Of a stretch of DNA of 64,000 nucleotides, positions 4,429-38,417 are shown one piece after another (positions within the stretch are counted from its first letter, which is position 1; every line of letters begins with the position of its first letter). Source of the DNA: a virus. Its lineage: Duplodnaviria > Heunggongvirae > Uroviricota > Caudoviricetes. The notes under the pieces were generated by a model. It worked only from the letters and a program-made list of their open reading frames with translations, had not been told where the DNA came from and ran no database searches. The position numbers were made by a program, and so were the translations under genes. Location of the stretch: IMG/VR virus record IMGVR_UViG_3300037512_000782, positions 188,732 to 252,731 of that record; one strand, given 5' to 3'.

Positions 4429-4512
4429 AGTATATCCTATTGATTCTGATTGCAGTTTATATAAAAATGCGTCACCGATTCCGGCGACGCATTGTGTATA
4501 TGGTATTTTAGA

Positions 4513-6747: not shown

Positions 6748-6819
6748 AACAGTTACCGTGATTGTTTGAATTCAGTTTATCACTTGTCGAGTTAACGGTT
6801 ATTTACTATATTGGGCGGT

Positions 6820-13552: not shown

Positions 13553-13644
13553 GGATTACTCCTAAGCAATTAGTACAACAAGTTTATAACATTTTCAATC
13601 CCACGATTATATAAACTGCGTACATACAACAACGGATATACGAT

Positions 13645-16363: not shown

Positions 16364-17236
16364 ATGGAAAGAATAATATCAGATACAATGCCGTTAGGTG
16401 ATCGTATCAAGTCGTACGAACACCAGTTCACTGGCTACACTATTGACTCGTCACTACCATTTATAGCTCGTGTGGACGGTAAGGCGTTCCATACCTATAC
16501 AAAGCGTATGCGCAAGCCGTTCGACGAACGTTTCGTGAAGGCGATGCAAGAGACTGCAAAAAAGTTGACAGAAACGTTCGATCCGATTCTGTCCTATGTG
16601 CAGTCCGATGAAATCACGTTACTATTCAAGCCGACAGCGGAACCGTTCTTGAGTGGAAAGCTGTCGAAGATGAACAGCATCATCGCAGCGACGGCGACTT
16701 ACTGGTTCAATCAGTTAATAGACCCAGAGACGCCGACCGTTGGCATTCCTATTTTCGATTGCCGCGTGTTCAACGTCCCAGATGAATGGGAAGCCGTCAA
16801 CGCGCTTCGCTTCCGTTACCGTGACGCCGTGCGCAATGCGGTTAGCGCTGCCGCTCGATACAAGGTCGGCCACTCGAAGTGCAACGGACTGAATACCGAC
16901 GAAAAACTCAAGTTAATAGGCAGCGACTGGAAGGGCTATTCTGTAGCGGCTCGCTACGGTACTTTCTACCGTCGAGTCAATGTCGTGAAGCCAGTCGCAG
17001 TCGATCGCGCCGCGCTTCCACCAGAGGTGGCTGCGAAGATTCCAGAAACTTGCCTCCGCACGGAAATTCACGAATACTACGTGAACATTGAGCAAACGTG
17101 GAACACTAGCTTGCCATACAAGTCGGAACCAGTCCCAGCTCCGTTAAGCTGCCCAGTGAGCGGCATCGACCACATCAAAAATGCCACGGACGTTATCTTC
17201 CGTGGACAAAATGCGGTACTTGATTCAAACGTATAA
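16364..17236 (+). CDS. tRNA-His guanylyltransferase-like protein (Thg1/TLP family; 3'-5' nucleotide addition, tRNA 5'-end repair)
   Basis: IARVDGKAFHTYTKRMRKPFDERF matches the Thg1 VVRLDG+xFHxF core; SDEITLLFK matches the SDEYSFVF metal-binding motif. The start could be ATG 16364 or 16388. Promoter box TTGCTATATTGTCC at 16347-16360. Terminator 17240-17270. Confidence 0.8.
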   Translation: MERIISDTMPLGDRIKSYEHQFTGYTIDSSLPFIARVDGKAFHTYTKRMRKPFDERFVKAMQETAKKLTETFDPILSYVQSDEITLLFKPTAEPFLSGKLSKMNSIIAATATYWFNQLIDPETPTVGIPIFDCRVFNVPDEWEAVNALRFRYRDAVRNAVSAAARYKVGHSKCNGLNTDEKLKLIGSDWKGYSVAARYGTFYRRVNVVKPVAVDRAALPPEVAAKIPETCLRTEIHEYYVNIEQTWNTSLPYKSEPVPAPLSCPVSGIDHIKNATDVIFRGQNAVLDSNV

Positions 17237-17239
17237 TAA

Positions 17240-17270
17240 AAGAGGCGGAATATTCCGCCTCTTTATTATA
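17240..17270. terminator. bidirectional intrinsic terminator
   Basis: GAGGCGGAATATTCCGCCTC palindrome followed by TTTATTAT. Confidence 0.65.
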
Positions 17271-18915
17271 TAGTGTAGTGAGTATTGAACGTATTGTTTA
17301 AGATTTCTGGGTGGTGTGCTCTGAGGTATTTGTATAGTCCGCTGCAATGCGCCTTAAAGATGGATACCGTTTCATATTTTTTTGTTTCGTCGATCATTTG
17401 CGGTACTGTCCAATAGTAATACGTATGTCGAACTACTTTGTTGATTGGTAGATACTTATCGAGTAAATCTTTTCGATTTGCCCATACATACCTAAATAAC
17501 GCATGACAGTGTTTTTCTAAATCACTGCGATATTGAAATTTTGTAATCTCAGCAATGATTTTCGTGTCTGACCAACGACAGTATTTACTAGGTCGTTTCG
17601 GTAGATGGTTTTTATAATACGACTTCAATAAGTCATTACAATGTCGACGGGCGTAATAATATAGACTAGGTTCGTTTTTATGCAACAAGCTTTGTGTCTT
17701 ATATTTCTTAAAGTGCTTCAAGAATAATTCATTATCCCATGTTTCATATTTCAGGTGCTTGCCGCGTTGTGGCGAAGGCGGTAAATACTTATCAAAATAG
17801 TCCATGTGATATTTCAATAAATATTTGTGTAATCCGGCATGCCGCTTTTGAAATGCGTTACGTTTTGTATATTTGGTCAAAACGTCAGCAATTTGCTGCT
17901 CCGTCCATTTATCGAATTTTGAGTTGATCTTCGGTAAATATTGATCAAGTAATTCAGGGAATCGCCTTTTGATATTTATATAAAGTTTTCCATTTTTCCG
18001 ACAAAAGGTTGCACGTCGTTTATATTTTTTGAGCTCCTTTATGATACGGTCTTTTGACCATCCATTGTATCCACGATTTTTATATGGAAACTGGTTATTT
18101 AGAAGTTCTGGTTTTTCGTGTAGCACGTATTTATAAATACCGTTTTTATGACGAGCGAATTCCGCTCGTGTTTTATACTTGCTCATGATACCAACGATGT
18201 CGGCATCCGACAGTTTCGTTAGATCATGAATAATTTTCAGTGGAAATACTGTATTAAGGAGTTCTTGCTTATTTTCAAGTAAATATGTATAGTATCGAGA
18301 TCCAGTTTTTGCAAGTCGTTGACGAGTCTTATACTTTGTTTTTAATAGCTTGGTATGTTCCTCATCAGTCATATTCTCGTAGTCGGCGTGTGACGACGGG
18401 ATGATATCATCGAGTAAGTGCAGTCGATTGGCTTTGCATAAATGTCCATATAGCGAACTATGGTTGTCCGAAAATTCAGACCGAGAATCACATGGGATTT
18501 CTTTAAGCCGTTTTCTAATCAAACGTCGAATTTGCCCATCAGTTTTATTTTTATATATGAATTCAGCAAATCCTCCTAGTTCGCCGCCCTTGGTCTTGTT
18601 AAGACACACAACATTATCCATCGATCGATATCGGCTAATTTCTGATTTTTCATAAGCAGCAGCCTCATCGGCTAGATAATTTTCGTGAGTGATTGTAAAA
18701 TACGGCAATACCTCAATATTATGGGACATTGCAAATTTTTTAATCGGTGAATAATGCTTATACTGTGTATGTTCAGAATTATGGTCGGTGAATCGTCGAT
18801 TCACATCTACAGTAATACCTACATACACATAAAGTATGCCATCTACATCGGTATACTTCCATTCATACGTACTGTACCTACGAAGGTCTTTTAGTCTTTT
18901 AGAATATGCTCGCAT
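17266..18915 (-). CDS. free-standing GIY-YIG homing endonuclease with C-terminal tandem-repeat DNA-binding array
   Basis: N-terminal ILYVYVGITVDVNRRFTDHNSEH...N..GG is GIY-YIG-like. At least 7 tandem ~40-aa repeats follow, of form (D/E)xxIxxxxKYKTRxEFxKHxxGxYKYxLxxxPELLxxxLP. AT-rich relative to flanking genes. Confidence 0.7.
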   Translation of the reverse strand: MRAYSKRLKDLRRYSTYEWKYTDVDGILYVYVGITVDVNRRFTDHNSEHTQYKHYSPIKKFAMSHNIEVLPYFTITHENYLADEAAAYEKSEISRYRSMDNVVCLNKTKGGELGGFAEFIYKNKTDGQIRRLIRKRLKEIPCDSRSEFSDNHSSLYGHLCKANRLHLLDDIIPSSHADYENMTDEEHTKLLKTKYKTRQRLAKTGSRYYTYLLENKQELLNTVFPLKIIHDLTKLSDADIVGIMSKYKTRAEFARHKNGIYKYVLHEKPELLNNQFPYKNRGYNGWSKDRIIKELKKYKRRATFCRKNGKLYINIKRRFPELLDQYLPKINSKFDKWTEQQIADVLTKYTKRNAFQKRHAGLHKYLLKYHMDYFDKYLPPSPQRGKHLKYETWDNELFLKHFKKYKTQSLLHKNEPSLYYYARRHCNDLLKSYYKNHLPKRPSKYCRWSDTKIIAEITKFQYRSDLEKHCHALFRYVWANRKDLLDKYLPINKVVRHTYYYWTVPQMIDETKKYETVSIFKAHCSGLYKYLRAHHPEILNNTFNTHYTI

Positions 18916-18955: not shown

Positions 18956-19942
18956 TTATTGTTTTCGACATAATATACGCTTGATACGTTCGATGAATTT
19001 ATCGAACCATGTCAGATGGACTTGTTCCTCGGCTGGTTCGCTGGATTCGACTTCGGCGACGTAAGGGTCGCCGTTTTCGTTTTCCTTGACGACAAATTCA
19101 CGATGGACGACGTCGGTCTCCGGCTGTGGATCTTTCACGGCTGGCTCTGGGTCTTCTGCTGGCTTCTCTGGTTCTGGCTCCGCAGCGACTGTCTCGACTA
19201 CCTTGTTCATATCGTCGAGCGTATCCTTTATCTGCAGAGTGAATTCCGGCGGTATGTCGTACTTGTCCTTGCGGACATTCGAGTGACAGAAGATTCCCTT
19301 GTACGCAACCGCTTCATCTGCAGTATCGAATACGTCTCCGATCATTTCCTTGAAGGTCAGCGGAATGCCGTGCTTCTCGGACAGATACTTGAGCAAGTGC
19401 GCGACAGCCTTCTTCTGGATTTCCGTCATCTTCGCATAGTAGCAATAGCCACGGTACGAAATGAAGTCGACGTTGGCCGGATCCTTCGTGTAGAGGTTGC
19501 CGTATGCGTCGATGTAGTTGCCGTTCTGTTCCTTGTCCTTGAGTGGGCCGTAGTTAGAGATCTCTATGCCGATTGACTGCTTGGACATGACGGCATTTCC
19601 GCCGATCGCCGTAGAACCGAGGTGATACGACCAGAAGGCGTCATCGAACAGTCTGTAGATGTGTCCGCTGCGGTCTACGACGTAGGGCACGGACATGTGG
19701 TTGTTCTCCTTGGTAAGTGACGCGACGTCGCCAGTAATCACGCCTACGGTGAAATGTAGGCATATCTGCGTCTTTACCGTGCGTGTCTGGTAGAAGTAGG
19801 TCTTGAAACCGGGAGAAATGGGGATGATGCTGAAACCGTCGCCGATATCGATCGGGTTTCCAGCGGTGAACTTCTTGCCGGACGAATCCGTCAAGGTATT
19901 GGCAAACTTGGCCTCACGGCTAGCGATTGTTTCTGGAGTCAT
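18956..19942 (-). CDS. N-acetylmuramoyl-L-alanine amidase (Amidase_2/PGRP, T7-lysozyme-like) endolysin
   Basis: ICLHFTVG...VPYVVDRSGHIYRL matches the Amidase_2 zinc-binding core. The C-terminal half has a Pro/Glu linker (PEPEKPAEDPEPAVKDPQPE) followed by an extra domain. Confidence 0.75.
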   Translation of the reverse strand: MTPETIASREAKFANTLTDSSGKKFTAGNPIDIGDGFSIIPISPGFKTYFYQTRTVKTQICLHFTVGVITGDVASLTKENNHMSVPYVVDRSGHIYRLFDDAFWSYHLGSTAIGGNAVMSKQSIGIEISNYGPLKDKEQNGNYIDAYGNLYTKDPANVDFISYRGYCYYAKMTEIQKKAVAHLLKYLSEKHGIPLTFKEMIGDVFDTADEAVAYKGIFCHSNVRKDKYDIPPEFTLQIKDTLDDMNKVVETVAAEPEPEKPAEDPEPAVKDPQPETDVVHREFVVKENENGDPYVAEVESSEPAEEQVHLTWFDKFIERIKRILCRKQ

Positions 19943-19994
19943 GTCGAGCCTCCTTTTATAGCCGTTTATAAAATCTTTTACTATATTGGTTGTT

Positions 19995-21185
19995 ATGAAA
20001 TACCTTAAAAATTACGACTTTATATTTGTCGGCGCTGGTCTCACCAACGCCACCATCGCAGAAACCATTGCAACATACCGTGGCAATTTTGACCGAAAGA
20101 TCAAGATGCTCGTCATCGACAAGCGTCCCCATATCGGCGGAAACTGTTACACCGAAACCAAGAACGGTATCGACGTACACAAGTACGGTGCGCATATCTT
20201 CCACACGTCTGACGACTTCGTACATGAATATATCAGCGATTTCGGCGAATGGGTTCCGTTCATCAACCAGCCGATTGCTGTATTCACGCAGCCGGACGGT
20301 ACGAAGCGCATGTACAACATGCCGTTCAACATGAATACCTTCGTGCAGCTGTTCCCCGGACTCACTACGCCAGCCGAAGTCAAGGCGGCCATCCAGAAGG
20401 AAATCGACGAGGCTGGTATCAAGGAACCGAAGAACCTTGCCGAACAAGCTATCTCCATGGTCGGTACGACAATCTTCAATACGCTCGTCAAGGGCTATAC
20501 GGAGAAGCAGTGGGGCCGTAAGTGCGAAGACCTTCCAGCCAGCATCATCAAGCGTCTCCCAGTGCGTTTCACGTTCGACAACAACTACTTCAATGACAAG
20601 TACCAGATGATGCCAGCGCATGGCTATACGAAAGTCATCGAGAACATGTTCAAGCATGCTGGCGAAATCGATGGTGCCCGTGTAGACATCATGCTCAACA
20701 CGTCCTACACGCAGTTGCAAGTTCTGGGTATCAAGGCCAAGCAAGTATTTTATTCTGGCGGCATCGACGAGTTCTATGACTACAAGCTCGGTGCGCTCAA
20801 GTACCGTTCCGTCAAGTTCAAGGAAAAGAAGTTCAAGACGGACAACGTGCAAGGATGCCCGGTCTGCAACTATACGTCGACAGACGTGCCGTACACTCGC
20901 TCTATCGAGCACAAGTGGTTCTGTCCGCACGACGACGCAAAGGGTTCTATCGTGAGCTACGAATACTCGTCCGAATGGAAGAAGGGCATGGAACCGTACT
21001 ATCCGGTCAATGACCAAGCAAACCACGACTTGTACGAGCGTTATAGGAAGTTGCACGAGGAAGAGCAAGCTACCGCGAAGACGAAGGTGACGTTCGTTGG
21101 ACGCCTCGGTCTGTATAGCTACATGGATATGGACGACTGTATCATGTCTGCACGGACTGCGGCCTTCTTGAGCATGCAAGAATAA
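19995..21185 (+). CDS. glf: UDP-galactopyranose mutase
   Basis: N-terminal FAD-binding YDFIFVGAG...KMLVIDKRPHIGGNCYTE and HKYGAHIFHT are diagnostic for UGM. Track ORF starts at TTG 19986; the ATG is 19995. Promoter box TTTTACTATATTGG lies just upstream. Confidence 0.9.
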   Translation: MKYLKNYDFIFVGAGLTNATIAETIATYRGNFDRKIKMLVIDKRPHIGGNCYTETKNGIDVHKYGAHIFHTSDDFVHEYISDFGEWVPFINQPIAVFTQPDGTKRMYNMPFNMNTFVQLFPGLTTPAEVKAAIQKEIDEAGIKEPKNLAEQAISMVGTTIFNTLVKGYTEKQWGRKCEDLPASIIKRLPVRFTFDNNYFNDKYQMMPAHGYTKVIENMFKHAGEIDGARVDIMLNTSYTQLQVLGIKAKQVFYSGGIDEFYDYKLGALKYRSVKFKEKKFKTDNVQGCPVCNYTSTDVPYTRSIEHKWFCPHDDAKGSIVSYEYSSEWKKGMEPYYPVNDQANHDLYERYRKLHEEEQATAKTKVTFVGRLGLYSYMDMDDCIMSARTAAFLSMQE

Positions 21186-21219
21186 TATATAAACTGCATA
21201 TACCAAACTGAGAGTGTAT

Positions 21220-22557
21220 ATGCAGTTTTTCGATTATGACAACGACTTGGTTGCGTTCAATACCTTGATGGAAGACATCGAGGATCCGACCCCGTTGGTA
21301 GAAGACGATGACGAAGTCGTTATCCGACTGGAAGCTGACGAAGGTGGCGACGCGAACCAATTCAGCGGCGCTATGGTCGCAAATGCGGTATCTAACGCCG
21401 TAATCAACAACGCAGAAATACGTACAAAGGTATTTATGTCGGCATACTGGCATACTAATGCCGAGCCGTTCGAATTCGCCGACATAGACGGTCGCAAAAT
21501 CATCAACGATCCGTCCCTCAATGCAATTATCGAAGAACGCGACGACGGTACGGTTGCCGTCAATTTCTCTCGTTTGGTCTACAAGAAGACTCCGGCTTCC
21601 TTTATCAACTATCTACAAGGCGTCGAGGACTGGTCTGACTTGCCGCACAAGCAAATCAGCCCATTTGCAAAGGCGCTCAATGCCGCTGTTACTTCGTTCT
21701 TGACAGTCGTCAAGAAATACTTCAAGGACAAGAACACCGCTGCCAATACGTTCGACAAGCCAGAGAAGGAAGAACCGAAGCAAGACGAGCATCAGAAGGC
21801 TCCGCCGACCGAGGAAGAAAAGAATGAACAGCCGCAGAATCAAGAGCAGCAAGAGCCGCAGAAGCAACAGCAGCAAGAACCTCAGAAGGAACCGCCGCCG
21901 CAAGACGAAGAAGCTAACACGCCCGACGATAACGGAGAAGTGGATCAGCGTCAGCTCTATTCTTCTATCTTGAAGGACTTCCGCGACAATTACCAGCAAG
22001 AACTTGAAGCCGATTGCGCCGATAACAAAGACAATATTGATAACGAAGGTCGTCAAGCGATTGCCGACCAGTATTACGACGCGCTGATGGAACCGTACAA
22101 CGACAAGGCCGACGACGACACGAAGGCTCGTGTGATGAAGGTCGTCAAGCACACCGTCGTAAAGAACACGACGGATCCGAACGCAGCAAACAACAATGCG
22201 AACACATCCGACAATCCGGATGACGACAACATGGATTGGAGCGGCGACACTGGCAATAAGGACGATGGCGACGACGATCTCGACGACGACGATGATGACG
22301 ATGACGAGAAGAAGAAAAAGACGTCGACCAAGGCTCCAGCGAAGGACAAGGGATACGGCAACTGGTTCAAGAACACCATGCAGAACTGGGGCGACGAAGG
22401 TGTGGTCAACAAGAAGCTATACCAGCACCCAGTATTGAAGGGCCCATCCGCAGCCAAGGAAGCGAGCCGTCAAGCTCGTGAAGCGAAGGACGCCGAGCTG
22501 AAAAAGAAATATCCGAACATGGGTCAATTCCGTAGGAATATGAATAACTGGAAATAG
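21220..22557 (+). CDS. highly acidic low-complexity protein (poly-D/E and Q/P/E repeats)
   Basis: Contains EEPKQDEHQKAPPTEEEKNEQPQNQEQQEPQKQQQQEPQKEPPPQDEE and DDDLDDDDDDDDEKKKK. Track ORF begins at GTG 21214; the ATG is 21220. Confidence 0.55.
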   Translation: MQFFDYDNDLVAFNTLMEDIEDPTPLVEDDDEVVIRLEADEGGDANQFSGAMVANAVSNAVINNAEIRTKVFMSAYWHTNAEPFEFADIDGRKIINDPSLNAIIEERDDGTVAVNFSRLVYKKTPASFINYLQGVEDWSDLPHKQISPFAKALNAAVTSFLTVVKKYFKDKNTAANTFDKPEKEEPKQDEHQKAPPTEEEKNEQPQNQEQQEPQKQQQQEPQKEPPPQDEEANTPDDNGEVDQRQLYSSILKDFRDNYQQELEADCADNKDNIDNEGRQAIADQYYDALMEPYNDKADDDTKARVMKVVKHTVVKNTTDPNAANNNANTSDNPDDDNMDWSGDTGNKDDGDDDLDDDDDDDDEKKKKTSTKAPAKDKGYGNWFKNTMQNWGDEGVVNKKLYQHPVLKGPSAAKEASRQAREAKDAELKKKYPNMGQFRRNMNNWK

Positions 22558-22565
22558 GGGATCTT

Positions 22566-22946
22566 ATGATTCAGAACTGGAAAATGAACGCTTTACATGA
22601 TGTCGCTACTAGCTTGACAGCCCACACTGGATTGAAGACCCAGCCGAAGGGCGACGACGCAGTCGATATCACCATCAACGATATGCGTCTAGGTACATTG
22701 ACGGCGGATAAAAGCGATCCGGCCTTGTTCATGTACACCTCAGCCGACGGCTATGACGTGACTGGAACCTACGACGACATCGAAGGTGCCATCAAAAAAG
22801 ACCTCGACAACCAAGTCGAGTTCGTGGAGGTCACACCGGATTTTTTTCCTCCGGGAACCACCTTTGAATCAGTAGTCAAGGACAAAGTAAAGACTCCGCA
22901 TCTGTTGGAAGCGATACTAAAATCCTACAAGAATTACAAGCAATAA
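22566..22946 (+). CDS. hypothetical protein
   Basis: 126-aa ORF, followed by bidirectional terminator 22948-22985. Confidence 0.5.
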   Translation: MIQNWKMNALHDVATSLTAHTGLKTQPKGDDAVDITINDMRLGTLTADKSDPALFMYTSADGYDVTGTYDDIEGAIKKDLDNQVEFVEVTPDFFPPGTTFESVVKDKVKTPHLLEAILKSYKNYKQ

Positions 22947-22947
22947 A

Positions 22948-22985
22948 AAGAAAGGCTGGTCAAACGACCAGCCTTCTTATTCTAT
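22948..22985. terminator. bidirectional intrinsic terminator
   Basis: GGCTGGTC-aaac-GACCAGCC followed by TTCTTATTC. Confidence 0.6.
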
Positions 22986-23001: not shown

Positions 23002-23592
23002 CTAGGCAGCAGCCTTGCGGATGATCGTGAAGCCGCAGCGTTCCATGACGAGGATTGCAGCAGCCTGTGCGCCCGGTGTAGCGGCACAAGCGTATTCCAC
23101 GATTTCGATCGGCGTGTCCTTGAACATTGCACGGAGAATCATTGCGTTGGAAATGACGCAAATGTCGGTGCAAGTTCCGACAAGGCGAATGCGCTTGATG
23201 CGTTCCTTGCCGAGCTTTGCGAGCTCTTCCTGGCTCTTGAGGGAGCCGTCCGCATTGAAGGCATCGTCGCCGAGGAAGTACTTCGCCCAGCCGAGGTAGC
23301 CGAACGTCGGCTTCTCGATACGAGTAGCGTAAGCGTCGTCGAGCGCTTGCTGGATGGATTCTTCGAACTTCCAGCCTTCCGTGCCCTTGATGCAGTGTTC
23401 CGGAAGAACGCCTTCGAGGGTCTGCTTGAAGTCTGCGCCGTGGGTGTCCATCGTGTAGAACACGTAGCCCTTCCATTCACGGATTTCTACGATGACTGCA
23501 CCGATGATTGCCTTGGCGTCGTCGTTTGCAAGAGAACCGTCGATGAAGTCCTTCTGCATGTCGATAACGATGAGGTATTCTTTTGGATTCAT
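23002..23592 (-). CDS. pncA: isochorismatase-family cysteine hydrolase, probable nicotinamidase
   Basis: LIVIDMQKDF (catalytic Asp), a lysine region and VGTCTDICV (catalytic Cys) give the D-K-C triad of PncA/isochorismatase. Start trimmed to MNPKEYL at 23592; the track ORF extends to 23754. Confidence 0.7.
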   Translation of the reverse strand: MNPKEYLIVIDMQKDFIDGSLANDDAKAIIGAVIVEIREWKGYVFYTMDTHGADFKQTLEGVLPEHCIKGTEGWKFEESIQQALDDAYATRIEKPTFGYLGWAKYFLGDDAFNADGSLKSQEELAKLGKERIKRIRLVGTCTDICVISNAMILRAMFKDTPIEIVEYACAATPGAQAAAILVMERCGFTIIRKAAA

Positions 23593-23605
23593 GATTTTGT
23601 CCTTG

Positions 23606-24802
23606 TTAAAGAGTTTGACGGAGCTGGATCGCCTTGGCAATGAGCTCACGGTGATGGAAAGCGAGAGGAATTTCGTCGAGCTTGTCGATCGGATACCACA
23701 TGGCGTCCTTTGCGTCGTCTTGTGCTTCCGGATCGGCTGGCAAGATTCCTTCACGGTTGAAGTCGAACATCATGCCGATGTCGTAGCCCCAGTAGTCCTT
23801 GTGGACATCGCAGCGAGGATCCTTCGGCTTGAATACGCCGACTTGATGCACTTGCGACGTGCCGATGGTAAAGCCAGTTTCTTCCTTGACTTCACGGACA
23901 CCAGCTTCCTCGCAAGTTTCCTTCGGATTGGCGAAGCCTCCCGGCAAGCACCAGTAATCGTGGTACGGAGCCTTCAAGCGCTTCACCAAGAGGATACGGT
24001 CGTTGTGGAAGATGGCCGAAGTCACGGTGACGGAAGGACGAGGGAAGCGGAACGGATCGTAGTTGGCTACGAGTTCGTCCTCAACATCCTTGTATTCCTT
24101 CGGTTCGGACTGTCCGTACAACTTGTTGCGGCGGATATACGACATCACTACCGGAGACACTTGGTCACAGAAGCACAGCGGATCGAAATTCATCATAAGG
24201 CGAGCCTTGGTAGAACTCGTCTTCGGAATGATCCAGTCGACGTATTCCAAGCGTTCTTGGCTGCTGCGCATCTGCTTGTAAGTTTCATCCGAGATGGTGC
24301 CGAGTCCTTTGGCAGAGTCAAGTGTTTCGATGAAGGCGGTACGACGGACAATCAAGAAGTTGACGTTCTTGAGAATCCAGTCGCTGTTCACCCACTGCTT
24401 TGTAAGCAAAGAAATCCATTCGTCGGAACCGAGAACCAGCATGAAGGTCGCATCGGCCATGCTCGTCTCCTTGCGGAGATTCTGCAGAGCTTCAGCGGTG
24501 CGGCTGACTTCGTCGATGATCTTGACTCGGTGGAAGATTTCGGACGGTTCGCCTTGATTGTAGGCAGCCGGAGAATCCGAATTATCGGAGTACAGACTGT
24601 GAAGCGAATTGACCGTATGGACAATCATGGCCATGCGGTCTTCGCACTCAACCGAGTACTTCTTGGTATCGTTGTCGCTTACCAAGATGTACAAGAGGGC
24701 TTCTGGTTCCTTCTTGAGACGGTTGAGGAGTTCGGTAATAATGGCGGTGTGCGCAGTCGTTACCGGATCGAATGCGCCGCCGTAGATGTACACCTTCTTC
24801 AT
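23606..24802 (-). CDS. nadM: bifunctional nicotinamide/nicotinate mononucleotide adenylyltransferase + Nudix hydrolase (NadM-Nudix type)
   Basis: N-terminal GGAFDPVTTAH matches the (H/T)xGH nucleotidyltransferase motif; LVLGSDEW also present. C-terminal Nudix box GGFANPKETCEEAGVREVKEETG fits Gx5Ex7REUxEExGU. Confidence 0.85.
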   Translation of the reverse strand: MKKVYIYGGAFDPVTTAHTAIITELLNRLKKEPEALLYILVSDNDTKKYSVECEDRMAMIVHTVNSLHSLYSDNSDSPAAYNQGEPSEIFHRVKIIDEVSRTAEALQNLRKETSMADATFMLVLGSDEWISLLTKQWVNSDWILKNVNFLIVRRTAFIETLDSAKGLGTISDETYKQMRSSQERLEYVDWIIPKTSSTKARLMMNFDPLCFCDQVSPVVMSYIRRNKLYGQSEPKEYKDVEDELVANYDPFRFPRPSVTVTSAIFHNDRILLVKRLKAPYHDYWCLPGGFANPKETCEEAGVREVKEETGFTIGTSQVHQVGVFKPKDPRCDVHKDYWGYDIGMMFDFNREGILPADPEAQDDAKDAMWYPIDKLDEIPLAFHHRELIAKAIQLRQTL

Positions 24803-26151
24803 TAGTCGAGTGCGTCCTTGTTTTCTGGAATGGGTTCGTACTGGTACGCATCCTTCGCACGTTCGATCACCTTCGGATCGGGGCAGTTGACCTTGCCCGG
24901 AGAGTCGGAGAGCTTCACGGCGTACTTGCCGTTGGACATGACGAGCTTCATGATCATGCGAAGCGCGTCACGCTTGATGCCTCCCTTGAAGCGGAGCACC
25001 TTGCAAGCGAGGAAGCCGCCGATACCGAACGCAACATTGATACGAGTGTGGAAGCGTTCAGCGATATCGAGAGACTGGTCGCAGTTGAGGCTGTCAGACC
25101 AGCAGCCAACCTTGCTCTTGGAATTGATTGCGTTCTTGAGGTAGTGTGCGATAAGCATTTCGCCCCAGACATACGGGTCGCCGGAATCGTGGCGGCAGCC
25201 GTCGAACAGCTTTGCGTAATACTTGTCGAAGTCGCGCAAGAATGCGTTGAAGCCGAAGTTGTCGGAAAGCGCGATACCGAGGTCGCCACGGAATTCGTCA
25301 GACCAGTCTTCGAGAACGCGCTGCTGCACGAGTTCAAGCGGAATGTCCTTGATGCCCTGATACAAGGCATACATTTCGTGGGCGAAAGTACCGATGGCCT
25401 TGCAGCCGAGCTTGATTGCCAAGTATACGTTGGACGTGCCAACGAAGGCCGGGCAGAAGTCGAGCATGGTCTTGACCATGTATTCGTTCCATTCGTCAGA
25501 TACGGAACGACGGACGCCGAAGTCGGAAATGGTGAACTTGACACCACGGCGGAGTGCTGCGTTCCACTTGGCGATAGATTCGTTGAGGGCCTTCTTGGAT
25601 TCTTCCCAGTCGATTTCGAGGTCGTCGAAGAAGAGGTTCTGGATGATCTTCAAGACGTAGATTTCAAACCAAGTGACTTGGATGGCTGGGCCGTCAGCCC
25701 AGATGTGGAGACCGCCGTTGCGAGAAGGGTCGTAGTCGACGTGGATGTACTTGCGCTTGAGCTGGAAGTCGGCAAGCCATTCGATGAAGTCGTCTGACAG
25801 CCACGGCATGACACGGCGGATGCCTTCGAGTTCCCATTCAGTAAACTTGAGTGTGCAAAGGTGGTCGAGTTCGCGATTGATTTCGTCATAGAACGGAGTA
25901 AGGTCGACGCCTTCGGAACGGAGCTTGAATTCCCAGTAAGCTCGTTCGTTCGGATGCTTGTGGAACACGCACTGGCACATACCGAACTTGTACGTATCGG
26001 TCTGCGTTAGGTTGTTCACAAACCACTTGTCTTTGTTCTTGCGCTGATACTGCTTGTTTACAGTGACGCCGACTGCACGGCGCTTGCGAACAACGGTGCG
26101 ACAAGGCTGCTTCGCCCTCGCGATTGTTTTTTCTGTGACTTTAACTGCCAT
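24802..26151 (-). CDS. pncB: nicotinate phosphoribosyltransferase
   Basis: Collinear matches to PncB: TDTYKFGMCQCVFH, ISDFGVRRSVS, FVGTSNVYLAIKLGCKAIGTFAHE, RHDSGDPYVWGE, AFGIGGFLAC, KLSDSPGK. Has a basic ~45-aa N-terminal extension. 1-nt stop/start overlap with nadM. Confidence 0.9.
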   Translation of the reverse strand: MAVKVTEKTIARAKQPCRTVVRKRRAVGVTVNKQYQRKNKDKWFVNNLTQTDTYKFGMCQCVFHKHPNERAYWEFKLRSEGVDLTPFYDEINRELDHLCTLKFTEWELEGIRRVMPWLSDDFIEWLADFQLKRKYIHVDYDPSRNGGLHIWADGPAIQVTWFEIYVLKIIQNLFFDDLEIDWEESKKALNESIAKWNAALRRGVKFTISDFGVRRSVSDEWNEYMVKTMLDFCPAFVGTSNVYLAIKLGCKAIGTFAHEMYALYQGIKDIPLELVQQRVLEDWSDEFRGDLGIALSDNFGFNAFLRDFDKYYAKLFDGCRHDSGDPYVWGEMLIAHYLKNAINSKSKVGCWSDSLNCDQSLDIAERFHTRINVAFGIGGFLACKVLRFKGGIKRDALRMIMKLVMSNGKYAVKLSDSPGKVNCPDPKVIERAKDAYQYEPIPENKDALD

Positions 26152-28121: not shown

Positions 28122-29378
28122 ATGAAGATTGATTTGAGCAAATACCACGAATTGGAGCTGAGTGACGGCCTCGCATTGGCGAAGGCGATCACCGAGCTCG
28201 GAGACGGCAAGGCGGAAGCTTATGTCGTCGGCGGATGCGTACGTGACCTTGTTCGTCATCAGCTAGGGCAGACTAGCACGGTAGATATCCATGATGTCGA
28301 TATCGCCACGTCGCTGTCTCTCGAAGAACTGAAGGCTAACTTCCAAACGGTCAGCAACAACGGCGAAAAACACGGAACGCTGCTGGTATTCTGGAACACA
28401 CAATACTTTGAAGTGACGCACTTCCGCGTCGACGGCGACTATAGCGACGGTCGTCATCCGGACGACGTATCCTTCACGAGTTCTTTCGAAGAAGATACGG
28501 CTCGCCGTGACTTTACTATCAACGCGCTCGGCATGAACTGGGACGGCGAAATCATCGACTTCCATGGCGGCGTTGAAGATATCAAGAAGAGAACCATCCG
28601 CGCTGTCGGTAATCCTGACGAGCGTTTCAAGGAAGATGCTCTCCGCATGATTCGTGCGGTGCGCTTCGCGGTAAACTTCGATTACATTATCGATAATAAC
28701 ACGTCTAGCGCAATCAGCAAGAACGCCGAGTTGGTTGAACATGTATCGAACGAACGTATTCGTTCCGAGTTCTTGAAGCTGTCCTCTTACGACAACATGC
28801 CCGATTTTATCGACCGTTTGATCTGGGTCGGCTTGATTAAGCATATCAGAGCGTTCGTCGGCATGGACTGGTACGAAGTCAAGTGCAACCTTATTGAGTG
28901 CGATGACTTGCTGACTGCAGACAACCTATTCCCCGCTATCTGCTACACGGCTAATGACGAAAGCAACTTGGAAGCATTCGTTCCTACTCGTGAGGAACGC
29001 AAGATGTGGAACTGGCTCCGTTCTTACAAGAATGTGTACGCATGGGATCCGGATTCCAAGCTGTATTGGACTTCGCTGGTGGATTTCGTGTCTGGTCAGT
29101 TCGAGCTGCTGCTTGCGCTCAATGCTGATCTGTATTGTGATCGTGCGTGGTTGCCCAAGCTTCCAGCAGCAAGCTATCTGTTGCAGAATCCGCCCGACAT
29201 GAAGGCGATTTCTAAGAGGGTCGCCGATATGGGCATTCCTCAAGGCAAGGCTTTTGGTGAAAAGGTGAAAGAACTCACTGAAGCCGAATACGCCAAGATG
29301 GCGGCTGTATTCCCAAACACAGTCTCGCTGACGATGGGCAACAGTACGCTTGTCTATAAAATTGAATCTGTCAAATAA
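28122..29378 (+). CDS. cca: tRNA nucleotidyltransferase (CCA-adding enzyme), class II
   Basis: AYVVGGCVRDLV (GGxVRD), DVDIATS (DxD catalytic motif) and RRDFTINAL (RRD motif). Track start 28086 is TTG. ATG 28122 sits 5 nt after a TATATTTC box. Confidence 0.85.
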   Translation: MKIDLSKYHELELSDGLALAKAITELGDGKAEAYVVGGCVRDLVRHQLGQTSTVDIHDVDIATSLSLEELKANFQTVSNNGEKHGTLLVFWNTQYFEVTHFRVDGDYSDGRHPDDVSFTSSFEEDTARRDFTINALGMNWDGEIIDFHGGVEDIKKRTIRAVGNPDERFKEDALRMIRAVRFAVNFDYIIDNNTSSAISKNAELVEHVSNERIRSEFLKLSSYDNMPDFIDRLIWVGLIKHIRAFVGMDWYEVKCNLIECDDLLTADNLFPAICYTANDESNLEAFVPTREERKMWNWLRSYKNVYAWDPDSKLYWTSLVDFVSGQFELLLALNADLYCDRAWLPKLPAASYLLQNPPDMKAISKRVADMGIPQGKAFGEKVKELTEAEYAKMAAVFPNTVSLTMGNSTLVYKIESVK

Positions 29379-29399: not shown

Positions 29400-29972
29400 A
29401 TGGGTAAAACAATCATTCTCGGCGCGGTCGGCTTTATCGTCGTCGCAATCCTCACAGTAATCGCATCCATCTTCATGGTTCAGAACTATCAGAACCGTGC
29501 AATCCAGATGGAACAGCTGGTGGAAAAGTCGCAGTCCAACCTCAACGCGGAATACAACCGCCGCGCTGGCCTTCTCGTCAACTTGGCGGAAGCCGTGATG
29601 AGCTATGACGAACACGAAGCCAAGGTTCTCGTGGAACTCTCGAAGGCTCGTACTCCAGACGGCGGCAAGGGAAACGTGAACGCTTCCGCTTACATCCAAG
29701 GTGTCGTGGAACGCTATCCGCAGCTCAGATCGATCGAGAATTACGATAGGTATATGACGGAACTTGCGATGACTGAAAATCGCATTGCGTCACATCGTAA
29801 TGATTACAATACCATGGTTGGGAACTATATCGCCTATGTGCGCGGATTCCCGGCTCGTTTCTTGCTCTCTATTCTCGGATATCAGCCGAAGAATTACGAA
29901 TACTTGCAGTTCGAAAAGGCTCCGGTAGACGCACCGACTGGCCTCTTGAAGAAGAAGGCTGATAAGGAATAG
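29400..29972 (+). CDS. LemA family membrane protein
   Basis: N-terminal TM helix, then QNYQNRAIQMEQ and EYNRRAGLLVNLAEAV, matching the LemA signature QxxRRADLIPNLV. Confidence 0.75.
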   Translation: MGKTIILGAVGFIVVAILTVIASIFMVQNYQNRAIQMEQLVEKSQSNLNAEYNRRAGLLVNLAEAVMSYDEHEAKVLVELSKARTPDGGKGNVNASAYIQGVVERYPQLRSIENYDRYMTELAMTENRIASHRNDYNTMVGNYIAYVRGFPARFLLSILGYQPKNYEYLQFEKAPVDAPTGLLKKKADKE

Positions 29973-29973
29973 C

Positions 29974-30765
29974 ATGAGCTCTCGCACACTGATCGACGGT
30001 GGCACGTGGGATCTCACTGTCCGTGAGCTGTTCTTGTCGATCGTTGGCTTACTGCTTGCCATAATCATTGGCTGCATTATCGCCAACAGCATCGCGCAAG
30101 CCGAAGACGAGTATAACGTGAAGTTCTATCACGCTATACAAGTGTCCGACTCCACCCAGTTCAATTATGCCTTCAAGACCAACGCTGGCCACATGCTGGC
30201 GTACGGCACTGTCAGCGCTGTTGGGTTCGTTACCGACAACGGTATCGGAAACTACATGTCGTTGACTAGGGACTTGGAGGAATACCGTAAGCACCATCGC
30301 ACAGTCTGTTCTGGCGAAGGGAAGCACCGTCATTGCCATACGGAAACCTACTGGACATGGGATGTCATCAAGACTGAACGGTTCCATGTCGATCAAGTGG
30401 ACTTCCTCGGCAAGCGGTTCTACTACTCTCAGTTTCCTCAGCTTCCGTCTGAACGCTATGTCGGCACAGTACCGATTCCGTCCGGCGGATTCATTGAAGG
30501 ATTGTTTAAGAACAGACAGCGGTATGTGTATCACGGCAGACGTTTAACGTACACTGGTACGATGTACACGAATGCGGTCAACCACACGATCAACGACTCC
30601 AAGTGGGCTGACGGCATTACGCTTGACAGAGCTATCGACTTCTACATCCATGAACATGGAGTATTGATTTTCTGGATTATCTTCGGTGTCATTATCGTCG
30701 TGGCCATCATCTTCTTTGTGGCGGCTCCGAACGAATGGCTTAACGGTTCAGTAAGGGACTGGTAA
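29974..30765 (+). CDS. two-pass membrane protein with ~180-aa extracytoplasmic domain
   Basis: TM helix at the N-terminus (LFLSIVGLLLAIIIGCIIA) and at the C-terminus (VLIFWIIFGVIIVVAIIFFV). 2-nt gap from the LemA gene. Confidence 0.6.
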   Translation: MSSRTLIDGGTWDLTVRELFLSIVGLLLAIIIGCIIANSIAQAEDEYNVKFYHAIQVSDSTQFNYAFKTNAGHMLAYGTVSAVGFVTDNGIGNYMSLTRDLEEYRKHHRTVCSGEGKHRHCHTETYWTWDVIKTERFHVDQVDFLGKRFYYSQFPQLPSERYVGTVPIPSGGFIEGLFKNRQRYVYHGRRLTYTGTMYTNAVNHTINDSKWADGITLDRAIDFYIHEHGVLIFWIIFGVIIVVAIIFFVAAPNEWLNGSVRDW

Positions 30766-30766
30766 T

Positions 30767-31177
30767 ATGAACGTAAAAATTGTAAATGGACTTGACGGAA
30801 ACGGATCCGTCACAATTACGGACAGCAATGGCGATGTCATGGTGTCCTTGAAGGACTGCCCGGAATTTCCGGTGTCTGGCGACATCACGATGGAATCCGA
30901 CAATGTTCTTATCGTCGGTGGCCGCCGCATCGAATGCGGTAAGCGTATCGCCGGGATCAACATCTGCGGTAACATTAAGTCCGTCCAAAATCTTCCAAAC
31001 ATTGTCGTGAACGGAAATGTCAGCAACGTCAGTACGACGTCTGGTGACGTGACTGTCCACGGCGACGTAAATGGCTCGGTGTCCGCCGTTTCTGGCGATG
31101 TCGAAGTCAGAGGTAGCGTCGCTGGCTCGGTCAGTACCGTGTCTGGCGATGTAGACGTCAGAAACAATCAACAATAA
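30767..31177 (+). CDS. beta-helical repeat protein (bactofilin/polymer-forming-like)
   Basis: Repeated (V/I)xGDVxVxGxV units: VSGDITM, VHGDVNGSVSAVSGDVEVRGSVAGSVSTVSGDVDV. Confidence 0.55.
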   Translation: MNVKIVNGLDGNGSVTITDSNGDVMVSLKDCPEFPVSGDITMESDNVLIVGGRRIECGKRIAGINICGNIKSVQNLPNIVVNGNVSNVSTTSGDVTVHGDVNGSVSAVSGDVEVRGSVAGSVSTVSGDVDVRNNQQ

Positions 31178-31189
31178 AGGAAAGTAAAC

Positions 31190-37421: not shown

Positions 37422-37452
37422 AAAAGGAGCCGAGAAATCGGCTCCTTTTCCT
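37422..37452. terminator. bidirectional terminator at island boundary
   Basis: GGAGCCGA-gaaa-TCGGCTCC followed by TTTTCC. Ends both the ParB-like gene (+) and the island operon (-). Confidence 0.65.
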
Positions 37453-38014
37453 ATACGCTGGAAATCCTTATCGGTTCCGCAAGAGTCTCGCTCTCGAACC
37501 ACCGTATGTATTCCTCGACCGGAGCCTTCAAGTCCGGATACTTGGCGTACAGCTTGTACTTGTCTAGGTGCATGAACTTCAGCGTCGTCGCTATCATGCG
37601 GCTATCGTCGTCGGCGGAAGACGTATAGGTTGATATGCAGCAGCTGCACTTTCCGTAGCCGAAATGCGTCTGGAACAAGCGCACAAACCTTGCCTCGACG
37701 AAGTTCTTCGCATTTAACCGTTCATTTTCGCCAATGACGACCTTGTGTCCCGGTATCTTGGGTACGATATGTATGTAGATGCTGCGCTCCGACAGAAGGT
37801 ACGCCTCGCCGCCACCGATGACGAGCATGCGGATAAATACCTTCACTGCGGCAGTGCTGCTGGCCCTTCTCCGTATGTAGTCGGTTCGGCCCTTCGTAAT
37901 CTTGTTTACGACGTGCCTCAGGGCCATTACGACCGCAGCCGAGTAAAGTACCGCTGTAATCTTCTTGAGCACGTTATACCTCGTCCATGAGCAAATGAGT
38001 GAGGAACCCGACAA
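37451..38014 (-). CDS. island gene, hypothetical (start uncertain, alternative 37927)
   Basis: First ORF of the higher-GC minus-strand island; hydrophobic N-terminal segment. Confidence 0.45.
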   Translation of the reverse strand: MSGSSLICSWTRYNVLKKITAVLYSAAVVMALRHVVNKITKGRTDYIRRRASSTAAVKVFIRMLVIGGGEAYLLSERSIYIHIVPKIPGHKVVIGENERLNAKNFVEARFVRLFQTHFGYGKCSCCISTYTSSADDDSRMIATTLKFMHLDKYKLYAKYPDLKAPVEEYIRWFESETLAEPIRISSV

Positions 38015-38414: not shown

Positions 38415-38417
38415 GTA

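Follow-up and report, generated by a model that had tools for sequence, protein, structure and literature searches.

The open reading frame at 19995-21185 of the window, by which we mean the whole analysed stretch of 64,000 nucleotides, is, as judged from its sequence, an intact gene (glf) for UDP-galactopyranose mutase (UGM), in a jumbo phage. The explanation tentatively preferred, to which we give somewhat less than an even chance, is that an active accessory UGM feeds a distal transferase, with the phage DNA as the likeliest acceptor. The UDP-Galf would have to be consumed by a galactofuranosyltransferase encoded away from glf, whose presumed place is most likely in the unread portion, about 79%, of the 343-kb genome. 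The acceptor, more speculatively, would be the phage's own DNA, which a glycosylated hypermodified base could shield from restriction, an idea already put forward for Pootjesviridae.

Identity and integrity of the glf gene

The glf reading frame (+ strand) begins with an ATG and encodes 396 amino acids, its stop codon being included in the coordinates. An alternative TTG at 19986 would add three codons; the ATG at 19995 was preferred because a conserved promoter-like element, TACTATATT, stops exactly 7 nt 5' of it, and the same distance between motif and ATG, found at five other genes, supports this choice.

The product matches the Pfam family GLF (E = 1e-70, 238 bits, cut-off 26.3) and, as second match, NAD_binding_8 (9.3e-14). 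Membership of the family was judged by a full-length match above the curated cut-off of TIGR00031, the UGM equivalog profile of NCBIfam, and the product scores 331.3 bits where 303.75 are needed. In PDB, 4mo2 of C. jejuni (6e-106) and 1i8t of E. coli (1e-104) match it best by sequence. The AF2 model (pLDDT 93.1, pTM 0.90) has the three-domain UGM fold, and Foldseek aligns it to both these structures with a target TM of 0.94 (E = 1.5e-46). The UGM identity, which had been called by a sequence-only reading of this DNA, is borne out by the profiles, the PDB matches, the model and the residues described below.

Both motifs named in that reading, HIGGNCYTE and YGAHIFHT, were found. The FAD-binding motif, which it had given as GxGxxG, is in fact G13-A-G15-L-T-N18, that is GxGxxN. 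In an alignment of 22 sequences, asparagine replaces the third glycine in all 16 sequences of the phage lineage, and this clade-wide conservation suggests that the replacement is tolerated; FAD binding is predicted, and at this motif a beta-strand is followed by a helix in the AF2 model.

Residues R187, R302, Y168, W173, Y198, Y335/Y336, Y376, E323, H62 and H67 are invariant across an alignment of 68 sequences, while D378 shows no variation among the 22 aligned sequences and is conserved to at least 90% in the larger set. We take the E. coli equivalents, in the 1i8t literature, to be R170, R278, Y151, W156, Y181, Y311, Y346, E298 and D348. Inactivating substitutions at substrate-binding residues, proposed earlier as a check, were looked for and none was found, the catalytic and substrate residues being all kept. 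The product is predicted to be a catalytically competent FAD-dependent UGM, interconverting UDP-Galp and UDP-Galf.

It is very unlikely that the enzyme uses a different UDP-sugar (UDP-GalNAc, UDP-L-arabinopyranose or similar) and makes a product other than UDP-Galf. This possibility is suggested by the best PDB match, 4mo2, deposited as a UDP-N-acetylgalactopyranose mutase, by the insertions and the GxGxxN motif of the phage clade, and by the existence of UGM homologues with different substrates, a precedent being the C. jejuni UGM-family enzyme that converts UDP-L-Arap into UDP-L-Araf (PMC10615251). The score above the TIGR00031 equivalog cut-off and the full invariance of the Galp-contacting residues speak against it. 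So does the occupancy of the positions corresponding to Arg59/Arg168 of the C. jejuni enzyme, which presumably confer GalNAc acceptance, a role said to have been described by Poulin and co-workers in 2014: the phage protein has His70/Lys186, the same pair as E. coli UGM.

Organization of the locus

The features of the glf region are as follows.

18956-19942, - strand: peptidoglycan amidase gene, with an acidic Pro-rich C-terminal extension of the product (Pfam Amidase_2, 2.7e-09; PHROG amidase/endolysin), likely an endolysin
19979-19987, + strand: promoter-like element of the extended -10 type, TACTATATT, ending 7 nt ahead of the glf ATG
19995-21185, + strand: glf, intact UGM gene by profiles, residues, AF2/Foldseek and dN/dS (0.18), 396 amino acids
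21186-21194, + strand: another promoter-like motif, TATATAAAC(TGC), starting 1 nt downstream of the glf stop, 25 nt ahead of orf445
21220-22557, + strand: orf445, acidic low-complexity protein (orthologues in L002, L003, L005 and L006, 34-91% identity)
22566-22946, + strand: orf126, conserved small protein, the true start of which is probably the ATG at 22584, following an alignment with relatives
22952-22975, both strands: bidirectional terminator-like hairpin (10-11 base pairs in the stem, including 6 G-C, and a T-rich tail on both strands)

The window has 13 occurrences of the motif T(T/A)(G/A)CTATATT, where about 0.6 would be expected, and the N7-ATG spacing after it recurs at genes 2931, 6820, 16364, 28122 and 32918. 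The glf ATG is not preceded by a Shine-Dalgarno sequence, and the TACTATATT-N7-ATG arrangement implies a leaderless mRNA. The other motif, TATATAAAC, which is T4-late-like, was found three times (0.16 expected): besides its place after glf, it is found 5' of the genes for the 152-aa and 812-aa proteins, and the 593-aa and amidase genes have variants of it in front of them. Both elements are kept at glf, upstream and downstream respectively, in three relatives (L002, L003, L005). A single glf/orf445/orf126 operon was considered and dropped, a conserved promoter-like motif beginning 1 nt past the glf stop; by its motif, orf445 appears as a separate unit under another promoter class. According to these predictions, glf would be transcribed alone, leaderless, from a sigma-70-like extended -10 promoter. 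Its promoter-motif class is common to tRNA-repair genes (Thg1-like, CCA-adding enzyme) and other enzyme genes, whereas neighbouring genes have the T4-late-like motif instead; the expression timing of the classes we infer from these motifs.

The amidase gene is divergent to glf and is its constant neighbour in the lineage. On the other side, the hairpin separates the glf/orf445/orf126 block from convergent NAD-salvage genes. No match to orf445 was found in Pfam or PHROGs, nothing in its sequence is glycosyltransferase-like, and its single-sequence AF2 model (pLDDT 49) is confident solely in a helical segment, at 240-320. The orf126 product has no PHROG match, and HMMs of the two proteins, run against all the fetched loci, matched within the lineage only. 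An Rfam scan of the window gave no match, and no tRNA genes were found in it.

The promoter classes bear on the idea that UDP-Galf serves for the glycosylation of virion proteins (of capsid, tail or fibres), which we hold to be quite unlikely. Glycosylated mycobacteriophage virions are reportedly a precedent, glf lies among the genes with the T4-late-like motif or its variants, and PHROG matches to virion structural and portal proteins occur somewhere in the window; glf itself, however, has the leaderless sigma-70-like promoter class, no transferase was seen close to the putative structural genes, and no link of this kind appeared in any glf context examined.

Lineage, conservation and selection

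The contig to which the window belongs (ENA ERZ27256849:k141_3706846) is that of a jumbo phage, comes from ruminant-gut metagenomes and has 342,771 bp; the window, at about 187,021-251,020 of it, makes up about 19%. Relatives include a JGI contig of 348,092 bp, which carries P0123/P0125, and WILK20-1 scaffold_12, of 468,552 bp. A wider jumbo-phage clade, defined by the 740-aa VWA protein, has members with and without glf. The window is of phage origin, given the contig and the PHROG matches to virion structural and portal proteins, an anti-restriction protein and a phage sigma factor. At the DNA level, its sole match among GenBank phages is a 54-bp stretch with 92.6% identity, and no relative of the 812-aa neighbour gene was found among them. 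Members of the lineage were found neither in IMG/VR nor in GTDB genomes, where identity to the glf product reaches 50% and 52%, respectively; the closest cellular homologues are from Clostridia and Coriobacteriia.

The glf of the lineage is represented by 16 sequences with 55-96% identity, monophyletic in a neighbour-joining (NJ) tree. After L053/L068, the nearest to the lineage are the glf genes of phages RL38J1 and ATCCB, in a tree that carries no support values and where the phage grouping could reflect long-branch attraction. The order Amidase_2, glf, acidic ORF is kept in six related phages (L001, L002, L005-L007 and L233); the triad persists even with rearranged surroundings, and in L002 it has received a TnpB insertion beside glf. 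The dN/dS of glf is about 0.18, and its GC content is 0.51, against 0.50 for the window. Allele exchange is suggested by the dS of glf between two relatives compared, about three times as high as in the flanking genes. Taken as a whole, glf would be a long-resident accessory gene of one ruminant-gut jumbo-phage lineage, under purifying selection and fixed in position between the Amidase_2 lysin gene and the acidic ORF.

That glf is a neutral passenger, a host gene recently captured and with no role in infection, is hardly credible. The mobile elements near it and its raised dS are what such a history could leave, but the reading is largely refuted by synteny kept across relatives down to 55% identity, by the low dN/dS, by a GC content equal to that of the genome, by a nearest cellular homologue just 52% identical and by the conserved promoter-like motif that glf has of its own.

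A few further observations concern mobile and repeated sequences. A low-GC repeat protein, mobile-element-like, is encoded at 17266-18915, close to glf, and TnpB adjoins glf in both L002 and L053. A homing-endonuclease-like gene, putatively multi-copy, has four homologues, and the one looked up (P0122) is at the same syntenic place. A search of metagenome contigs with an intergenic motif of 20 specified bases gave 51 stretches; those sharing genes with the window all map to a single small-gene region (window 43-73 kb). Genes of the small-gene class have a strong AAGGAG Shine-Dalgarno sequence, which speaks against a host among Bacteroidota.

Phage glf genes in other contexts

Phages commonly carry glf, and the UDP-Galf-making enzyme has been seen in many large ones before: annotations of glf exist for 90 GenBank phage records, T4-like Aeromonas phages and Pootjesviridae among them, and 337 IMG/VR contigs have the gene, so the novelty implied by the sequence-only reading was overstated. 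S. suis "phage" matches were set aside as precedents, since they lie within about 35 bp of record ends and may be flanking host genes.

The one phage whose glf has been linked to a product is the Rhizobium phage RL38J1. Its DNA carries Gal-Glc on 5-hydroxycytosine, and the UGM of this phage has been proposed as supplier of UDP-Galf for the galactosyl-glucosyl-5-hydroxycytosine (PMC13326640). Its glf lies 29, 62 and 75 kb from three candidate DNA glycosyltransferases. In Lactobacillus phage ATCCB, a thymidylate-synthase (TS) homologue, a beta-glucosyltransferase (BGT) and glf are consecutive, and in L022, a 394-kb IMG/VR jumbo contig, glf follows a TMP-kinase/TS fusion, a TAGT DNA glycosyltransferase, a homing-endonuclease-like gene and a 348-aa ORF. 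ORFs flanking viral glf genes match TAGT (4 of 99) and C5 methylases (2 of 99), but also GT2 (14 of 99), GT11 and Polysacc_synt (2 of 99 each); in a 241-kb rumen jumbo contig, a gene for a GT92+DUF4422 protein is directly upstream of glf. In short, phage glf genes have two kinds of surroundings at the least, DNA-modification cassettes in some cases and ordinary glycan transferases in others, and the position of viral glf genes beside GT2 or GT92/DUF4422 transferases indicates that a DNA role is not universal.

Search for a transferase or base-modifying enzyme

No glycosyltransferase was found among the Pfam matches listed (25 of 29 families) for the 82 ORFs of the window, nor among their PHROG matches. 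Ten unannotated mid-size proteins of the window, scanned leniently against Pfam (E<=1), gave noise and no glycosyltransferase, and comparison of the conserved glf neighbours with PHROGs revealed no hidden transferase. The types sought, in the window as well as in its flanks, were thymidylate-synthase-like, TET/JBP, TAGT, BGT-like and other glycosyltransferase genes. According to Pfam tables, none of these types is present in about 10 kb of the contig past the 3' end of the window, or in about 10 kb upstream, represented by two relatives only; the same holds for about 10 kb further 3' in a near-identical relative. By phmmer, no ORF similar to RL38J1 gp151, gp215, gp216 or gp237 was found in any lineage locus examined, and none similar to the TS, TAGT and 348-aa proteins of L022, or to the TS and BGT of ATCCB, in the lineage loci. 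A base-activating enzyme (a TS homologue making 5-hydroxy- or 5-hydroxymethyl-pyrimidines, or a TET/JBP dioxygenase) is accordingly missing from the window and about 30 kb of flanks, and a DNA glycosyltransferase (TAGT, T4 BGT/AGT-like or RL38J1-type GT-B) from the lineage loci, with about 79% of the contig lying outside in either case.

The earlier description of glf as an orphan holds locally, as the window, about 10 kb on its 3' side and about 20 kb of relatives' flanks lack a transferase, but does not extend to the genome. A partner Galf transferase outside the window, named there as a point to check, was not found in the 3' 10 kb or in the relatives' flanks. The missing neighbour is weak evidence for orphan status, because the window is such a small part of the genome and the RL38J1 glf is itself 29-75 kb from the candidate transferases.

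Integrase, flippase, polymerase, acetylase and polysaccharide-synthesis families were also sought, and none is among the Pfam matches listed (25 of 29 families) or the PHROG matches of the window ORFs; in the six relatives, likewise, no Galf transferase of the GT2, DUF4422 or a similar type, and no flippase, polymerase, acetylase or integrase, flanks glf. Classical seroconversion is disfavoured by the lack of integrase, flippase and polysaccharide-synthesis families in these lists. Remodelling of envelope glycans in a broader sense is possible, though we doubt it. The phage UGM would here create or raise a UDP-Galf pool for a galactofuranosyltransferase of the host, or a distal one of the phage, acting on cell-wall polysaccharide, teichoic acid, LPS or capsule; superinfection exclusion, receptor masking on debris or an aid to lysis could result. 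The peptidoglycan amidase that always adjoins glf in the lineage, and also in Pootjesviridae, is consistent with such a role, but the same adjacency occurs in RL38J1, where the sugar goes onto DNA. Further points in its favour are the GT2, GT11, Polysacc_synt and GT92+DUF4422 neighbours of other viral glf genes, and the relationship to Clostridia and Coriobacteriia, in groups like which Galf-containing wall polymers occur. On the other hand, no transferase, flippase, polymerase or integrase is seen in the window lists or the flank Pfam tables, and a Galf-making host already owns a glf for a reaction that is an equilibrium, which makes the benefit of a second copy doubtful.

The sequence-only reading listed several roles and singled out none; of these, the comparative context favours, in our analysis, DNA or another glycosylation encoded elsewhere in the genome. 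DNA as acceptor is suggested by the precedents of RL38J1, ATCCB and L022, the TAGT and C5-methylase neighbours of viral glf genes, the NJ grouping and the many counter-defence functions encoded around glf (ArdC-like anti-restriction, NAD+ salvage, tRNA repair). The window region is bordered by two C5 cytosine methylases, in the 3' extension and in the relatives' upstream flanks, and these argue against a wholesale replacement of cytosine by a C5-substituted form as in RL38J1; a pathway of TET type, or one based on thymine, would possibly be compatible with them. It is also conceivable, albeit unlikely, that the lineage attaches Galf to DNA or another phage macromolecule through a transferase, and possibly a base-activating step, dissimilar to known families. 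One possible route would build on the 5-methylcytosine made by the flanking methylases, and jumbo phages would then have a new hypermodification pathway of furanose type.

At present, the glf of this lineage stands as a solid yet ordinary accessory-gene annotation. If DNA is the acceptor, furanose hypermodification of DNA would extend from the Pootjesviridae, of about 150 kb, to uncultured gut jumbo phages of 340-470 kb, and would point to transferases escaping current profiles. As a rule for annotation, a glf that stands alone in a large lytic phage calls for a genome-wide search for base-modifying enzymes, rather than for an automatic "host cell-wall gene" label.

Comparison with known systems

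The phage protein resembles E. coli K-12 Glf (1i8t) and the C. jejuni UNGM (4mo2) in fold (TM 0.94), sequence (46-47% identity) and length, with identical substrate residues and, one glycine excepted, the same predicted FAD-binding residues. It is set apart from the bacterial enzymes by a longer C-terminus (396 vs about 365 aa), by four short insertions specific to its clade, by asparagine at the third glycine of GxGxxG, and by being encoded in a jumbo phage without adjoining polysaccharide genes. Cellular glf-galactofuranosyltransferase clusters (O-antigen, capsule, arabinogalactan) share with it the enzyme and the need for a Galf transferase, whereas no transferase, flippase or polymerase is near the phage gene.

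Among phages, the T4-like Aeromonas and Stenotrophomonas phages (IME13 gp079, Aeromonas phage 25) are also large lytic myoviruses with a single glf, located in an early-type region by motA with hypothetical neighbours; identity is 34%, the phage family is unrelated, and the role of glf is putative there as well. The UGMs of ATCCB and L022 belong to the same broad clade (45-48% identity), but their glf genes lie inside a DNA-modification cassette, no member of which was found with the jumbo-lineage glf. RL38J1 gp084, a Pootjesviridae UGM, is only 40% identical, and the 5-hydroxy-dCMP synthase and three DNA glycosyltransferase candidates of this phage have no detectable homologue in the readable part of the lineage. 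Synthases of this 5-hydroxy-dCMP kind are TS homologues with a D169N signature. The methylases are of the adenine type in the RL38J1 region examined and of the C5 cytosine type around the window. Both are, nevertheless, UGMs of large lytic phages: the glf of RL38J1 is also a lone gene, tens of kb from candidate transferases, adjoins an Amidase_2 gene as in the jumbo-phage lineage, and groups with the lineage glf in the NJ tree.

Identity of the glf product

The glf gene (396 codons plus stop, intact) encodes a protein that is, short of an enzyme assay, almost certainly a UDP-galactopyranose mutase (UGM) in identity and predicted function. The UGM call of the sequence-only reading was confirmed by Pfam (GLF, 1e-70, with an additional NAD_binding_8 match), by the NCBIfam equivalog model of this enzyme, passed with 331 bits (cut-off 303.75), and by end-to-end alignment with the solved enzymes of C. 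jejuni (6e-106) and E. coli (1e-104). It is also borne out by an AlphaFold2 model, built with 68 sequences as input (mean pLDDT 93, pTM 0.90), which superposes on 1i8t and 4mo2 with a target TM of 0.94. The dinucleotide motif, given in the same reading as FAD-binding GxGxxG, was inexactly spelled: it reads G-A-G-L-T-N, Asn replacing the third Gly throughout the clade.

In a 68-sequence alignment of phage and cellular proteins, Arg187 (the mobile-loop Arg), Arg302, Tyr168, Trp173, Tyr198, Tyr335/336, Tyr376, Glu323, His62 and His67 are invariant; Asp378 is invariant among 22 aligned sequences and reaches at least 90% conservation in the larger set. Substrate-binding and catalysis-supporting residues, matched to E. 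coli numbering by a correspondence that we take to hold, are conserved as judged from these alignments. Arg59 and Arg168 of the C. jejuni enzyme, presumably the positions giving UDP-GalNAc acceptance, align with His70 and Lys186, the same residues as in E. coli UGM, which points to UDP-Galp as the likeliest substrate. A different sugar is possible, is not favoured, and seems quite improbable.

Gene content of the window

The features around glf are listed below.

Selected features of the window
16364-17236 (+): Thg1-like tRNA-His guanylyltransferase
17266-18915 (-): repeat-protein gene, GC 36%
18956-19942 (-): Amidase_2 gene, divergent from glf
19995-21185 (+): glf
21220-22557 (+): orf445, acidic, low complexity
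22566-22946 (+): orf126, small protein
23002-26151 (-): three-gene NAD+ salvage set (nicotinamidase-like isochorismatase, NMN adenylyltransferase-Nudix fusion, NAPRTase-family enzyme)
28122-29378 (+): CCA-adding enzyme
29400-32827 (+): LemA-family protein, two hypothetical proteins and a 545-aa SPFH/flotillin-like protein in a row
37451-41870 (-): eight-gene tandem array, 127-179 aa each, GC 56%
41974-43125 (-): repeat-protein gene, GC 44%

A phage sigma factor and ArdC-like and RadC-like proteins were also identified by Pfam/PHROG, as were, by PHROG matches, a virion structural protein and a portal protein. The window holds no tRNA genes and no Rfam matches, and its DNA matches GenBank phages over a 54-bp stretch only. 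The Thg1-like and CCA-adding enzymes, in a window free of tRNA genes, suggest tRNA end repair. The NAD+ salvage set probably counters NAD-depleting defence; an NAD synthase is added to it in three relatives (L003, L233, L068), and the whole set is missing in another (L005). The flotillin-like gene is kept in the relatives examined. The tandem array exceeds the rest of the window in GC, includes at least two paralogue groups (39358/39825 and 40280/40783/41331), and several of its N-termini look hydrophobic by eye. About 10 kb past the 3' end of the window, a near-identical relative encodes a Fib_succ_major (Fibrobacter succinogenes major paralogous domain) protein (L113:12473-13003), a possible hint to host range.

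Conservation and exchange at the glf locus

An identical glf protein is encoded on a 342,771-bp ENA contig, of which the window represents about 187-251 kb, roughly 19%. The lineage comprises 16 database proteins with 55-96% identity to the glf product, monophyletic among 165 UGM sequences in a neighbour-joining tree without support values. Contigs of relatives reach 468,552 bp, that one from an African-cattle rumen assembly; some others come from JGI samples, and the remaining assembly labels are, we assume, those of ruminant-gut studies. The 740-aa VWA protein at the 5' end of the window marks a large clade of 190-475-kb contigs. Since VWA-clade contigs at 55-67% VWA identity are absent among the glf homologues, this indirect comparison of the two homologue lists points to glf being accessory and specific to a single sub-lineage.

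The order Amidase_2 (minus strand), glf, acidic ORF of 395-498 aa is retained in six distinct relatives, also in those that lack the NAD cluster or carry the 812/593-aa gene pair elsewhere; in L003/L004, a 179-aa ORF without Amidase_2 match lies upstream of glf. Because dN/dS is 0.18 against an 87%-identical relative, GC content equals that of the genome, and cellular homologues, the closest from Clostridia and Coriobacteriia MAGs, reach at most 52% identity, glf is regarded as an old, functional resident. That it is a neutral passenger is contradicted by this conservation and selection, and is scarcely credible.

Between the window and the 468-kb relative (L002:10001-11191), dS is 0.57 for glf and 0.17-0.23, about threefold lower, for the flanking amidase, orf445 and orf126. 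Together with the selfish-looking elements that adjoin the locus, this indicates, at the level of sequence, a mosaic exchange of alleles between related phages. The two repeat-protein genes, low in GC (versus 50%), look like selfish insertions; their proteins consist of repeated modules of about 45 aa, are weakly similar to each other and share phrog_20046. In relatives, a TnpB (OrfB_IS605) gene adjoins glf instead (L002:8871-9959; sister contig L053:11394-12605).

Transcription signals

Three classes of upstream motifs were distinguished.

Positions of class (a) and class (b) motifs
Class (a), T(T/A)(G/A)CTATATT: 2914, 6804, 8059, 8374, 16347, 19979, 26188(-), 26357, 28106, 32902, 36487, 41881(-), 43227(-)
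Class (b), TATATAAAC or ATAAACTG: 4455-4463(-), 6773-6780(-), 13608-13616(+), 21186-21194(+)
Class (b) variants: 13589(-), 19971(-), 5' of the 593-aa gene and the amidase

The 13 class (a) sites, against about 0.6 expected, all fall within the first 43 kb. In six cases, including glf, exactly 7 nt separate the motif from the ATG and a Shine-Dalgarno is absent, a geometry that suggests leaderless mRNA from an extended -10 promoter, and a gene class alongside a strongly SD-dependent one in the same phage. Genes of this class include the Thg1-like, CCA-adding and DHH-phosphoesterase genes, and the motif is kept 5' of glf in three relatives. Class (b), TATATAAAC(TG), resembles the T4 late promoter. 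Copies stand 25-35 nt 5' of orf445 and of the genes for the 152-aa and 812-aa proteins, and the shorter form ATAAACTG at such a distance 5' of a 744-aa gene; neither the 812-aa nor the 593-aa protein is matched by Pfam or PHROG. The orf445 copy starts one base past the glf stop and is conserved in three relatives, and a bidirectional terminator-like hairpin (22952-22975) closes the block. The glf gene appears to form a unit by itself, with a unit of another promoter class on either side; we infer that class (a) may be early and class (b) late. These late-like neighbours are the one observation in favour of glycosylation of the virion as the role of glf, which is considered unlikely.

Class (c) is a hairpin cassette that precedes 20 or more small genes (49579-64029, +); in the contig locus L089 the series runs on to about 72.5 kb. 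Its layout is GACTGG-N12-GGGGCTGCCTCG-N6-TATT...TTTATACAAC...AAGGAG...ATG. The hairpin (9-12 bp, G+C-rich, z-scores -2.2 to -4.0) has an invariant core and a covarying outer stem. Next come a T-rich tail, a -10-like TATACAA and a strong Shine-Dalgarno. The whole resembles a terminator/promoter cassette serving a single class of small genes; its 20-specified-base pattern recurs in 51 stretches of a metagenome-contig collection.

Search for a partner enzyme

No glycosyltransferase, thymidylate-synthase (TS) homologue or TET/JBP was found in the Pfam matches of 82 window ORFs (25 of 29 families inspected, the other four with E above 1.4e-4), among PHROGs matches, in a lenient scan of ten unannotated proteins, in precomputed Pfam tables of the 342,771-bp contig to 260 kb, about 10 kb further 3' in a near-identical relative, about 10 kb upstream in two relatives, or in syntenic stretches of other relatives. 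Modification proteins of Rhizobium phage RL38J1, Lactobacillus phage ATCCB and a 394-kb IMG/VR contig (L022), used as phmmer queries, matched nothing in any lineage locus. Among the loci compared, neither orf445 nor orf126 has relatives outside the lineage; the structure model of orf445 is poor, a helical segment excepted, and nothing in it points to a transferase. The search reached about 95 kb of lineage sequence, with about 21% of the 342,771-bp contig readable. The earlier description of glf as an orphan holds locally, for window and flanks, on a fifth of the genome, too little for a genome-wide judgement; among large phages, a local orphan of this kind is no exception.

On either side of the window region lies a C5 cytosine DNA methylase gene, two in all: about 6 kb past the 3' end of the window (L089:17367-18251) and, in relatives, about 5-7 kb before its 5' end (L229:4030-4914 / L230:3373-4590). 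Their presence makes it less likely that a C5-substituted base replaces cytosine completely. L230 also encodes a 494-aa Nuc_deoxyri_tr2 protein, and L229 a choloylglycine hydrolase (CBAH).

Comparison with other phage glf genes

The glf gene occurs in 337 IMG/VR contigs and 90 GenBank phage records, the latter including Pootjesviridae of Rhizobium and Agrobacterium, T4-like Aeromonas and Stenotrophomonas phages, Erwinia FBB1, Lactobacillus ATCCB and gut metagenomic fragments. According to a 2026 paper (PMC13326640), 5-hydroxycytosine in RL38J1 virion DNA bears galactose and then glucose, and the phage UGM is proposed there as UDP-Galf source. Three candidate transferases of this phage lie 29, 62 and 75 kb from glf, and an Amidase_2 gene lies directly 5' of it, the same odd adjacency as in the window; glf of large lytic phages may lie far from its partners. 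In ATCCB, a TS homologue, a beta-glucosyltransferase and glf are contiguous, and L022 carries TMP-kinase/TS, TAGT, a homing-endonuclease-like gene, a 348-aa ORF and then glf. A GT92+DUF4422 protein adjoins glf on a 241-kb rumen contig, and 99 glf-flanking ORFs from 54 IMG/VR loci include 14 GT2, 4 TAGT, 2 C5 methylase, 2 GT11 and 2 DUF4422. By these contexts, phage glf genes occupy two or more kinds of surroundings: cassettes for DNA modification, and neighbourhoods of ordinary glycan transferases.

Phage DNA is tentatively favoured as acceptor of galactofuranose, by analogy with the RL38J1, ATCCB and L022 precedents. It is further favoured because glf neighbours the RL38J1 and ATCCB sequences in the tree, shares its promoter class with enzyme genes, unlike the adjoining late-like units, and lies in a neighbourhood of counter-defence flavour; against it, the roughly 95 kb showed no modification enzymes, and the two C5 methylase genes weigh on the same side. 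Remodelling of the envelope glycan appears somewhat unlikely; its main supports are the amidase gene conserved next to glf and the GT2-type surroundings in which other viral glf genes lie.

The earlier interpretation is partly supported: the UGM and the local absence of a transferase stand, and the weight given to the orphan status is reduced by the phage precedents. To anyone looking for galactofuranose-based modification in uncultured jumbo phages, the glf of this lineage offers a reasonable starting point. Phage-encoded UGM is an already known type, to which the window glf adds another member.
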